DNA of 64,000 bases, from positions 1 to 64,000 of the forward strand of contig CAXXVO010000009.1 of assembly GCA_963422645.2 (NCBI GenBank), written 5' to 3'. This stretch comes from Alphaproteobacteria bacterium (lineage in GTDB: Bacteria; Pseudomonadota; Alphaproteobacteria; UBA828). How positions within the stretch are numbered: position 1 is the stretch's first letter; each line of letters begins with the position of its first letter. Under the pieces are notes generated by a model. That model had not been told where the DNA came from, made no database searches, and saw only the letters and a program-made list of their open reading frames with translations. Made by a program: the position numbers and the translations under genes. Below are positions 36,765-39,872 of the stretch, piece by piece.

Positions 36765-36836
36765 TGCTCCGTCCTTTCCCGTTCTCGCGACCGCTGCCGG
36801 CCGTCCCCAACGGCCTTGTGTACACCATTGTAGGGG

Positions 36837-36955
36837 GACGAAAGTCATTGCGAATCCGGAAGATGCCGGGAAGAAGGCGGAAGAGGGCGGACGGTCAAGG
36901 GGTTGGCGGCGTTTCCGGGGTCTGGCGGGCCGGACGAAAGTCTTTGCGAATCCGG
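36837..36955 (+). repeat. Left-end transposase-binding-site repeats (2 copies, 96-bp period)
   Basis: GACGAAAGTCATTGCGAATCCGG (36837-36859) and GACGAAAGTCTTTGCGAATCCGG (36933-36955), 22/23 identical. The first begins at position 9 of the end. Confidence 0.85.
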
Positions 36956-37228
36956 CCCGGAAAGGGCCGTGAATTGGCTGGAAACGGTGATTTTCGGGGC
37001 GTTTCAGGGGTGCTGAAAGGCCTGTATGTCAATCGGCTTTCAATACTGACCCCCGATCGGCGTGCAAAATTGACCCCCCTGAGTGGCACGGCGGAGGTTG
37101 TCCCGGTAGCCAATAGGGGGGACCCGCGCGGCTTCGTGTGGCGCCCTGCGCTACGCGGAGCGAAGCCGCGTGGGGGGTCCCTGTTGGCCCACCGGGGCAA
37201 CCGGGCCGCAAGGGAGGCCGGCGGCGGG

Positions 37229-37957
37229 TCAGGAGCGGTTCTTGAAGCGCCAGCTCTCGTTGCCGGTCTCGATGATCTCGCAATGATGGGTGAGGCGATC
37301 GAGCAGCGCTGTGGTCATCTTGGGGTCGCCGAAGACGGATGGCCATTCGCCGAAGGCGAGGTTTGTGGTGATGACGATCGAGGTGCGCTCGTAGAGCCGG
37401 CTCATCAGATGGAAGAGCAGCTGCCCACCGGCCTGGGCGAAGGGCAGGTAGCCGAGCTCGTCGAGGATGACGAAGTCGCGGCGGACGAGCTGGTCTGCAG
37501 TGCGGCCCTGGCGTCCGGCGCGAAGCTCGGCCTCGAGGAGGTTGACCAGGTCGACGACGTTGTAGCACCGGCCGCGCGCGCCCTTGCGGATGCAGGACCG
37601 CGCGATGGCGACGGCGAGATGGGTCTTGCCGGTACCGGTGCCGCCGACCAGCACGATGTTGCGTTTGCCCTCGAGGAAGCCGCCGCCGGCGAGCTCCTGG
37701 ATCAGGGGCTCGTTGACCGGCGAGGCGGCGAAGTCGAAGTCGGCCAGCTCCTTGACCGTCGGCAGCTTGGCGGAGGCCATCTGGTACTTGATCGAGCGGG
37801 CCCTCTTGTCGGCGATCTCGACCTGCAGCAGCGTACCGATGATCTGTTGCACCGGATGGCGGCGCTTGAGCCCGTCGGCAAGGATGTCGTCGTAAGCGGC
37901 GCGCATACCTGCGAGCTTCAGCTGGGTCATCATCTCCAGCACATCATGACGCTCCAT
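37229..37957 (-). CDS. istB: IS21 helper AAA+ ATPase IstB
   Basis: [42 protein letters not shown]. Confidence 0.95.
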
Positions 37958-39458
37958 GACCGGCCTCCCTCAGGCTGTCGTAGCGCTGACAGTCGGCTAC
38001 CGGCTTGTGGCGAAGCTGCAGGCCCTCGGGCGTCGGGATGATTGCCGGCGGTGCCGGCTGGCGCTGCCGGGCGAGGATGTTGAGCACCACGTCGGCGCTG
38101 CAGGCACCGCAGTCGAGCGTCTCGGCACAGGCCGCCTCAACCGCCTCCAGTCCGTCCTCCAGCACCGCCGCGAGCACCTTGACGAACTGCCGGTCGCCGT
38201 CGTCGTGGCCCGCGAGCCGGGTTCGCAGGCGGCCGAGCGCGTTGGGCAACTGCCAGTCCTTGAAGGGCGCGCCATTGCGTAGCGCGCCGGGCTTCCGCGT
38301 CAGGATCGGCACGTAATGCCACGGATCGTAGACGAACCGGCCGCGCCCGAAGCTGCGGGGGTGCTCGGCAACGGTCTCGCCGTCCTGGCGGATGACGATC
38401 CGATCGGCATAGGCCCGCACGTCCACCGGCCGGCCGACGGCGCGGGCCGCGACGCTGTACTGGTTGTTGTCGAAGCGCACCAGACAGGTCTTCGAGACCG
38501 ACACCTCGCTGGCATGGAAGCCGTCGAAGGGGCCGCGATACGCCATCAGGAAGGGCTGCTCCTCCTCGAACACCTGCCACACCGTCTTGCCCGGGATTGT
38601 CGGATGCGGATGCTTCTTGGCGTCCTCGATGCACCGATCCATCAGCCACTCGTTGATCTCGGCGTAGGAGCGGCCCCGCGGGATGGGCACGAACAGGCGG
38701 CCGCGAAGGTCACCCACCTGCTTCTCGACCTGCCCCTTCTCCCAGCCAGCCCCTGGCGTGCACGCCACAGGCTCCACCAGATGGTGCGAGCACAGCTCCT
38801 GGAAGCGGCGGTTGTAGTCCCGCTTCTTGCCCACGAAGATCGTGCTCACCGCCGTCTTCATGTTGTCGTAGATGCCCCGCCGGCAGACCCCGCCGAAGAA
38901 GCGGAAGGCACGCTCGTGCGCCTCGAAGACCATCTCCTGGCTCTCGCGGGGAAAGATCTGGACCAGATACATCCGGCTGTGGCACAGCCGCATGTGCGCC
39001 GCCTTCACCCTGGTCGTCGCGCCCGACAGACGCGCGTACTCGTGGCTCCAGTCGAACTGGTAGGCCTCGCCGGGATCGAAGATCAGCGGCACATAGGCCT
39101 GCGCCGGCGACAACAGCCGCCACCGGCGCCGCCAGGCCCTGGCATAGCGGCGAACCGCGTCATAGCCGCCCTTGTAGCCCAGCGACACAAGGTCTTCATG
39201 AATCCGCAGAAGAGACAGCCGATCCTTGCGTGCCTTCTTCTCGTTGGCCTTCAGCTGGCGCTCAAGCTCCTCCACCCACAGCCCAAGCTTCGGCATCGGC
39301 TGGATCTTGCGCTCGTAGCTGTGCGAGGTCGCATCGCCCCGCACCACCTTGCGTATCGTGTTCTTGGAAACCCTCAAATCCCGGGCGAGCTTCTTGATCG
39401 GAACGCCCTTCACCAGATGATCCCGACGGATCTTCGCGATCGTTTCCACAACCAGCAT
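37944..39458 (-). CDS. istA: IS21 transposase IstA
   Basis: N-terminal [28 protein letters not shown]. Overlaps istB. Confidence 0.95.
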
Positions 39459-39653
39459 CTCCCCCACCACCCCGTCCGTCCAAACGACGAGGTGTGTTCA
39501 TGGACACAAATCCAAGGGGGTCAATTTTGGACGCCGATCACCCCCAATAGGGGGTCACTTTTCCACGCTTAACAACACGCTCCTTCACGGCCCATGCACA
39601 GGCCGGTTTTTCCAGCCCGATTCAGCCCCGAAAACCAGACGATTTTCCAGGCC

Positions 39654-39696
39654 ATTCGCAAAGACTTCCGGCCGCGATTCGCAAAGACTTTCGGCC
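39654..39696 (-). repeat. Right-end transposase-binding-site repeats (2 adjacent copies, 23-bp period)
   Basis: ATTCGCAAAGACTTCCGGCC (39654-39673) and ATTCGCAAAGACTTTCGGCC (39677-39696), inverted relative to the left-end repeats. Confidence 0.85.
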
Positions 39697-39872
39697 GGCT
39701 ACAACCATTATCGGACCTTCTTCCGGAATGAAGAGAGATGAAGAGGGATGATGCGGGATAAAGCAGGAATCCTGGGGCTATCGAACAGCCTCGCTGAGCG
39801 AAGCGGCCGCGAGTCCACTTGGCAGGGCGCGACCAGCACCCGAAATCTGTGACGCGGGCGCGTCGCCCGACC

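Follow-up and report, generated by a model that had tools for sequence, protein, structure and literature searches.

The stretch of DNA analysed here, referred to as the window, comprises 64,000 nucleotides (positions 1 to 64,000 of contig CAXXVO010000009.1, assembly GCA_963422645.2, from a bacterium of the Alphaproteobacteria). Between a gene for an amidohydrolase and a gene for a MOSC-domain protein, the window contains an element that consists of a left arm, an insertion sequence (IS) of the IS21 family and a right arm. This outer element occupies positions 36829-39703, and its tips, read directly from the sequence, are TGTAG...CTACA. At the left junction the pentamer ACCAT is followed immediately by TGTAGGGGGACGAAAGTCATTGCGAATC, and at the right junction GATTCGCAAAGACTTTCGGCCGGCTACA is followed immediately by a second copy of ACCAT. 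The insertion lies 65 bp upstream of the MOSC-domain gene and downstream of the amidohydrolase gene. The window copy holds only the IS21 between its arms, and no virion genes of the type found in phage Mu. A preliminary description, made from the letters of the window alone, had already reported a transposon insertion with intact ends and a 5-bp target-site duplication, which lacks transposition genes of its own and is not next to glmS or a tRNA gene. The junctions, the enclosed IS21 and the two neighbouring genes agree with that report.

Both arms contain repeated sites. A 17-mer, GAAAGTCTTTGCGAATC, was found four times in the window when up to three mismatches were allowed, and all four occurrences are within the two arms (36840 and 36936 on the plus strand; 39669 and 39692 on the minus strand). 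The number expected by chance is 0.05, and a count of four was reached in none of 100 shuffles. A repeat search recovered two 24-nt sites in the left arm, at 36836 and 36932 (96 nt apart, 96% alike), and two 23-nt sites in the right arm, at 39651 and 39674 (23 nt apart, 91% alike). It also recovered a terminal inverted repeat of 29 nt, which is 86% complementary. Hence, two sites are recognisable at each end, widely spaced on the left and adjacent on the right, as the preliminary description had stated. It had also counted 8 bp ahead of the first site, which becomes 7 nt when measured from the 24-nt repeat unit. The coordinates of all features are collected in Table 1.

Table 1. Features of the outer element and its flanks in the window.
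Feature	Position	Strand	Evidence and remarks
Left target-site duplication copy, ACCAT	36824..36828		Direct reading; one ACCAT at the orthologous site in 7/7 relatives read
Left arm, 198 bp, subtype LA, tip TGTAGGGGGAC	36829..37026	+	Sites L1 36840-36856 and L2 36936-36952, 96 nt start to start
IS21-family insertion sequence, 2551 bp, TGTCAATCGG...CTTAACAACA	37027..39577	-	Occupies the place of the interior
istA, 508 aa	37944..39470	-	Pfam rve + Mu-transpos_C_2
istB, 242 aa	37229..37957	-	Pfam IstB_IS21, E 3e-75
Right arm, 126 bp, tip TGTAGCCGGCC (as read on the minus strand)	39578..39703	-	Sites R1 39676-39692 and R2 39653-39669, 23 nt start to start
Right target-site duplication copy, ACCAT	39704..39708		Direct reading; single ACCAT in relatives
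Flanking host gene, MOSC-domain protein, 259 aa	35985..36764	-	Pfam; start codon 65 bp from left tip
Flanking host gene, amidohydrolase, 472 aa	39873..41291	-	Pfam

The region and its flanks were searched against 20 other genomes of the genus, and seven orthologous loci were fetched. The flank on the MOSC side was 86-92% conserved in the relatives. In several same-genus genomes the left and right flanks of the window were 38-166 bp apart, with nothing between them. The preliminary description had proposed that relatives should rejoin at a single ACCAT, and they do so, without the insertion, in all seven loci: the sequence reads ...TGTGTACACCAT followed by TATCGG..., with one ACCAT and the window's right flank directly behind it. 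In two of the seven relatives the flank alignments overlap by exactly five bases. These seven empty sites demonstrate that the window element is a real transposition footprint, and therefore that the repeated motifs are not regulator sites. One might still suppose that the motifs are derived from the ends of the IS21 and belong to no separate mobile element, since IS21-family ends also start with TGT and have repeated sub-terminal sites (TGTCAATCGG..., with repeated GACCCCC blocks). The relatives, however, lack the whole 2.9 kb, the termini of the IS21 are unrelated in sequence to the outer arms, 58 copies of the IS21 are found in places that lack these arms, and the majority of arms have no IS21. 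Because the empty site already refutes it, we give the explanation by regulator sites or IS21 ends a negligible probability.

The element is not alone. In the genome to which the window belongs (5.9 Mb in 23 contigs), 173 matches to the site resolved into 89 ends that start with TGT, which fell into 24 ends of class LA, 20 of class LB, 40 of class R and five others. The LA ends read TGTAGGGGGAC, with the second site at +96; the LB ends read TGTAGACGGAC, with the core GAAAGTCGTTGTGAATC and the second site at +116; and the R ends read TGTAGCCGG[A/C]C, with the second site at +23. Three other copies have left arms that match that of the window at 99.5-100% identity over 198-201 bp. The last 16 nt of the window's left arm matched 28 places elsewhere in the genome, and in 24 of these the arm continues intact (AATCGG...) toward a Mu F gene. 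The right arm runs on, in other copies, into an ORF (open reading frame) of 330 aa and a J-like tail fibre gene. Relics of this kind thus number about forty in the genome, the window element among them. Copy-number profiles pointed to further repeat families at roughly 110, 70, 57, 48 and 28 copies, and the genome is unusually rich in mobile DNA.

We extracted 23 pairs of neighbouring left and right ends. Identical 5-bp flanks were present in 20 of these pairs, which measured 893 bp to 22.7 kb. The 20 duplication-flanked insertions are at 20 different sites; two of the pentamers coincide, on different contigs. The remaining three pairs (C9:628068-628868, C14:56507-63015 and C6:164266-158241) have non-matching flanks. 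For several ends the partner pentamer was found on another contig, which implies rearrangement between copies and is what recombination between them would produce. Eleven of the 20 duplicated pentamers match NYSRN, compared with 19.5% of the pentamers in the genome (binomial P 4.6e-4), in a small, GC-rich sample of pairs selected because they show a duplication. Passages of PMC12486242 name NYSRN as the consensus of Mu-type targets.

The larger members of the family carry phage genes between the same ends. The ORFs of six copies were scanned with Pfam and PHROGs, and coding genes were told from spurious high-GC ORFs by their codon-position composition. In the best copy (C6:363749-351607), the genes toward the left tip encode phrog_286, an HNH nuclease, an endolysin, the small terminase/Mu gp27, the large terminase, the portal and Mu F, with about 270 bp between Mu F and the tip. 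Mu gp27 was recognised in the larger copies as PF11985 (4e-28), the large terminase as Terminase_6N/6C and Mu F as PF04233. The copies with LB ends have the same gene order, with Terminase_6C, Portal_Mu (7e-78) and Phage_Mu_F (2e-22); the portal of the LA copies is phrog_10963. Toward the right tip lies an ORF of 1157-1508 aa for a lambda-J-like central tail fibre (phrog_31, 8e-84 and 3e-87), followed by two or three small ORFs and then by about 170 bp up to the tip.

The terminases of the LA and LB copies are 40% identical and their J proteins 44% identical, and blastp gave no match between the portals or between the Mu F proteins of the two classes. At least two mosaic phage lineages therefore have end sites and layout in common. 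The LA and LB copies concerned (L009-L011, L026) represent module exchange behind conserved transposase sites. One of them, L009, has an insertion of ~2.16 kb (C13:166500-168660) between its gp27 and terminase genes, which encodes a 619-aa DDE_Tnp_1 (IS4-like) transposase; the same IS also occurs inside the copy at C8:597273-583393. An intact copy was sought by walking inward from unpaired ends. The best right end was single-copy and looked chromosomal past about 5.5 kb, as judged from ORF composition with no family scan, and the copy at the best left end stops at an IS21 insertion 9.5 kb from the tip. No complete phage was found by such walks in this genome.

Relatives of the Mu F protein of the LA copies are present on five IMG/VR contigs. 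In a provirus of 43 kb (G062), the genes that read toward one end include homologues of gp27, the terminase, the portal (52%) and Mu F (41%), and Mu F is the last recognisable phage gene ahead of host DNA. Homologues of J (29%) and of a 277-aa ORF read toward the other end. The centre of the provirus holds, on the strand of the tail genes, a capsid gene, a 425-aa AAA_22 ATPase and a 628-aa protein that matches rve weakly. This arrangement agrees with the one deduced from the relics. A second virus (G063; 41.7 kb, rated 98% complete) encodes a 752-aa transposase with Mu-transpos_C (9e-17), HTH_Tnp_Mu_1 and rve, and after it a TniB/AAA_22 protein. Its portal and Mu F are 49% and 37% identical to those of the family, the J fibres of the two viruses are at 29-33%, and it has a gp27 homologue. 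The TGT tips of this virus lie inside about 50-75 bp of other DNA at each end of the record. Its sites, with the core TTTTGCAC, lie at a distance of about 105 nt at one end; the other end has three, spaced by 21-22 nt. The early genes of this phage point outward to the end, and it offers a clean case of the asymmetry of Mu-type ends. In the phage collection, only Microcystis phage Mae-JY22 was found (portal 52%); its record was apparently cut at an arbitrary point and was of no help for the layout of the family.

In our judgement it is very probable that the window element derives from a Mu-like transposable siphophage, of which IS21 has left a hollow relic that cannot now move unless a cognate MuA acts on it in trans. 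Since larger copies with the same ends carry phage head and tail genes, and since the insertions are at many unrelated sites, its parent was most likely a Mu-like transposable siphophage, with a transposase that we infer and have not seen. The preliminary description had offered a hollowed remnant of a larger transposon as one of its two alternatives, and the phage genes between the same ends in larger copies support that choice. We file the element as a relic and not as a phage, because the defining MuA-type transposase and MuB-type ATPase are absent.

The family resembles phage Mu in its TG/CA tips (all 89 ends begin with TGT), the 5-bp target duplication, the presence of several sites per end with wide versus abutting spacing, the near-random choice of targets, and the gp27, portal and F genes of its larger copies. 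It differs from Mu in that no A or B genes survive. According to a passage of PMC3145075, Mu has three MuA sites per end with differing spacings, of which L1, R1 and R2 are sufficient; only two sites per end are recognisable in the window element. The layout differs as well: the packaging, portal and F genes point outward at the left tip and the tail genes outward at the right tip, and in G062 the transposase gene has a central position. The tail is of siphovirus type, with a J-like fibre, and a single genome has about 40 insertion sites in place of a single prophage. In Mu-like phages ('saltoviruses'), as outlined in part of PMC5977238, MuA is the DDE transposase and MuB the AAA+ ATPase.

No cognate transposase gene was recovered from the genome. 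The Pfam profiles DDE_2, Mu-transpos_C and HTH_Tnp_Mu_2 (PF02914, PF09299 and PF09039) gave no match in it, which is a weak result, as the controls were positive in none of the 14 control genomes. A search for rve gave 113 matches, in repeated IS-type frames or short fragments that were not all annotated individually. About 67 of these belong to the IS21 of the window and a further ~24 to the ~5.2-kb element described below, and we attribute the 113 matches to insertion sequences or their fragments. Two rve genes were considered as possible phage-type transposases, and a Pfam check found neither to be MuA-like. A 544-aa gene at C22:64.4 kb was set aside: it has Mu-transpos_C_2, as IstA does, and is therefore IS21-like, and it is more than 40 kb from any end of the family. 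It belongs to a single-copy region (L183, C22:60000-72000) that encodes a tyrosine integrase, this IstA-like transposase (Mu-transpos_C_2, rve and a helix-turn-helix (HTH) domain), a fragment of a serine recombinase, a single-stranded DNA-binding protein (SSB) and a 540-aa protein with a P-loop-like N-terminus and DUF3991/Toprim.

Matches to AAA_22 led to an element of ~5.2 kb, present in about 24 copies (e.g. L184, C9:31300-36500), that was considered as a possible A/B module. The element, whose left end reads TGAGCGCGCGCGG..., encodes an HTH protein (214 aa), an rve protein (536 aa), an AAA_22 ATPase (292 aa) and a DUF3991/Toprim protein (310 aa). We rejected it, as its copies are 99.8-100% identical, have sharp boundaries of their own (TGAGCGCGC...) and lack the 17-nt site. 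The single-copy region on C22 may be an integrative element related to it.

The preliminary description had labelled the window element Tn7/Tn402-like. TGT/ACA tips, multiple asymmetric sub-terminal sites and a 5-bp duplication are common to the Tn7-like, CAST (CRISPR-associated transposon) and Tn402/Tn5053 families, and the window element has all of them. A mini-transposon of one of these families, with ends recognised by TnsB/TniA and with its tns/tni genes lost, would account for this anatomy, and the same genome has the ~5.2-kb element, with its HTH protein, rve protein and ATPase. The contents of the family argue otherwise. Every larger copy that was annotated has phage head, lysis and tail genes of Mu type between the ends, and no tns, tni or Cas genes were among the ORFs scanned from the six copies. 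Furthermore, 20 duplications at 20 different sites leave no common attachment site. The two rve and ATPase modules of the genome have other boundaries and DUF3991/Toprim partners, and no tni module lies between family ends in the copies scanned; the candidate on C22 has the domain set of IstA. MuA belongs to the same DDE superfamily as TnsB and TniA, which explains why the end anatomy looked Tn7/Tn402-like. The element shares with the Tn7, CAST and Tn402-Tn5053 families the presumed transposase superfamily, the look of its ends and the 5-bp duplication, whereas it departs from them in having no tns, tni or Cas genes, no fixed attachment site, and phage structural genes as its ancestral content. 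We consider an origin from one of these families very unlikely and largely refuted, and return to the Mu-like phage.

The loss of the phage interior can be linked to the IS21. Like other members of its family, this IS encodes IstA (rve and Mu-transpos_C_2) and then IstB (IstB_IS21), and has TGT...ACA termini with repeated sub-terminal blocks. Unlike them, it mostly lacks a direct repeat and is enriched in the arms of the Mu-like family. The genome contains 58 full-length copies that are 99.9-100% identical, which points to a very recent burst. Of the 141 IS21 termini, 14 lie at most 400 bp inside a tip of the family, a zone that makes up 0.6% of the genome, so that the enrichment is about 16-fold. 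The point in the left arm after ...GGCCTGTA carries an IS21 in two other copies as well, where the IS21 points the other way and has different DNA beyond it. Retained left-arm lengths all differ between copies (217, 224, 361, 530, 567, 744, 930, 974 ... bp), which implies that the copies decayed independently. No IS21-free junction of the two arms was found in the genome. We conclude that IS21 caused the deletion of the interior of the window copy. Two routes could have led to the hollowing: each arm may have held an IS21 and the two copies recombined, or an IS21 in one arm may have transposed intramolecularly into the other.

The flanks of the IS21 in the window (..GGCCTGTA on one side, CGCTCC.. 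on the other) do not form a direct repeat. The missing duplication is no proof of two insertions followed by recombination, because 53 of the 58 full-length copies lack a 3-10 bp direct repeat in their flanks, and a matching right-terminus flank exists anywhere for just seven of the 71 left termini. Some IS21 flanks are palindromic (e.g. C21:16472/19022), which suggests insertion into hairpin-like targets. The IS also repeatedly abuts another repeat, with ...GTCGCGCCCGAG directly before the IS21 (C8:682532, C8:772852, C9:505712, C12:54272 and C18:216002), as it does the arms of the Mu-like family, and apparently targets the termini of other mobile elements. Its marked preference for the sub-terminal arms is itself testable as a case of target choice.

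The other alternative of the preliminary description was a MITE-like (miniature inverted-repeat transposable element) unit of ~324 bp. According to this explanation, the two arms moved into the site as a true small unit, mobilised in trans, and the IS21 inserted afterwards. Such units are plausible as such: the genome G061 described below has non-coding elements of ~1 kb that moved as small units, and a passage of PMC3145075 indicates that laboratory mini-Mu(LR) units need only their ends. The genome of the window provides no support for it. It contains no IS21-free arm junction, no two copies with a common internal deletion junction, and no duplication-flanked copy shorter than 893 bp. The left-arm lengths, all different, argue for independent decay. 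Moreover, the deletion junction would have to coincide exactly with the insertion point of the IS21, and the same point in the left arm is an IS21 target in two other copies with different far-side DNA. A MITE family can be recognised as several copies of one short non-coding structure at different sites, each with a duplication of its own; this was found among the ~1-kb relatives in G061 and not in the genome of the window. We therefore hold a MITE-like origin of the window copy to be improbable, and the hollowed Mu-like phage remains our preferred explanation.

The sites are rare outside this genome. With at most one mismatch, the 17-mer was absent from all 60 relatives searched, 20 of them of the same genus. 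One same-genus genome (G012) has a solo, diverged left arm (C6:~3817389) with the core GAAAATAACTGCGAATC and, about 95 nt further in, a second site. The genes that were recognisable beyond this arm are all of housekeeping type (transport, amidohydrolase etc.), and the first ORF inward (299 aa) has no Pfam match. A scan of species-representative genomes for the 17-mer returned at least 89 stretches; among the matches listed, these were mostly chance-like, apart from those in one alphaproteobacterial metagenome-assembled genome, G061. In viral contigs the 17-mer had eight matches, none with the context of an end. The 28-nt end pattern was found in no viral contig and in one metagenome contig, where it was chance-like and without a second site.

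G061 has about 24 ends. Its non-coding elements measure 0.9-1.5 kb and number at least six (L129-L132, L143 and L151). In five of the six, the left arm is 70-76% identical to that of the window over the matched ~200 bp; the right end reads TGCAGCGGGAC... Exact 5-bp duplications flank four of the six elements, one has a match at four of the five bases, and one has no match. Pairs of elements from different sites show 92.6-95% identity across the greater part or the whole of their length (e.g. L132 and L143: 93.3% over 1291 bp), which implies that they moved as small units. They are genuine non-autonomous derivatives. The rve content of G061 is a single rve fragment, and the long candidate elements in this genome proved to be chromosomal genes beside short relics.

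Several observations weigh against the origin from a Mu-like phage. No MuA or MuB gene turned up in any copy or elsewhere in the genome, neither in the profile searches nor, at E <= 1e-3, in a tblastn search with the transposases and ATPases of G062 and G063. As there is no cognate gene, the link to a MuA-type transposase rests on the anatomy of the ends and on the relatives. These relatives differ from the family at their ends: those of the provirus G062 were looked for and not located, the sites of G063 have a different core, and the 17-nt site of the window family is lacking from both, as far as their ends were located. The gene order, with Mu F by one tip and reading outward and the transposase gene in the centre, is unlike that of phage Mu. 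Since the ORFs of only some copies were annotated, a tns or tni gene might be present elsewhere in the family. Lastly, the missing duplication at the IS21 of the window fits both hollowing routes and proves neither, since nearly all full-length copies lack one.

We propose that a MuA-type DDE transposase would have bound the 17-nt sites, two spaced on the left end and two abutting on the right, would have cleaved at the TGT/ACA tips and would have joined these to the target with a 5-bp stagger. The phage would thereby have landed between the amidohydrolase and MOSC-domain genes and duplicated ACCAT. Later, an IS21-family element that favours the sub-terminal arms of this phage family would have taken out the whole interior. 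What is left is 198 bp, the IS21 and 126 bp, without MuA or MuB and immobile on its own. Since the tips and L1, L2, R1 and R2 have been kept, a cognate transposase acting in trans could in principle still move the window copy, as in laboratory mini-Mu(LR). Such ends-only mini-Mu(LR) units are complemented in trans by MuA/MuB, as a passage of PMC3145075 describes. In mechanism the element resembles Mu, and laboratory mini-Mu is its closest analogue: both keep the L and R ends without the transposition genes. In contrast to the laboratory constructs, the window copy arose by natural decay, has the IS21 as its cargo, and has no helper in its genome.

Taken alone, the window copy is the ordinary shell of a decayed prophage. 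The family is less ordinary, given its about 40 sites, two mosaic lineages on one set of sites, an arm-homing IS21, and non-autonomous derivatives in G061. A full-text literature search, with subscription journals not covered, brought up no title or abstract on bacterial natural mini-Mu or on MITE families of phage origin, which does not prove that nothing of the kind has been published. For annotation, pipelines that rely on ORFs would report just the IS21 at this locus, and it is the arms that reveal a prophage shell around it. About 84 similar ends mark past phage insertions in this genome and are likely substrates for recombination in a genome laden with insertion sequences.

Mu is the textbook case of transposition tied to lytic growth. 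A broader and more tentative idea, which we think possible though rather doubtful, is that transposable phages seed families of non-autonomous transposons, or natural mini-Mu, and that the window copy is a still-mobilisable member with an IS21 passenger. If so, two or more related Mu-like phages would have reached about 40 chromosomal sites in a lineage that survived, so that a phage would have acted as an intragenomic transposon instead of killing its host. The ~1-kb units of G061 would then have been mobilised in trans with no resident transposase, perhaps by infecting phages. The dozens of duplication-flanked relics, together with the derivatives in G061, suggest that ends of phage origin can survive and spread in the manner of transposons, and these ends and derivatives provide a concrete set of sequences with which such spread may be tested.

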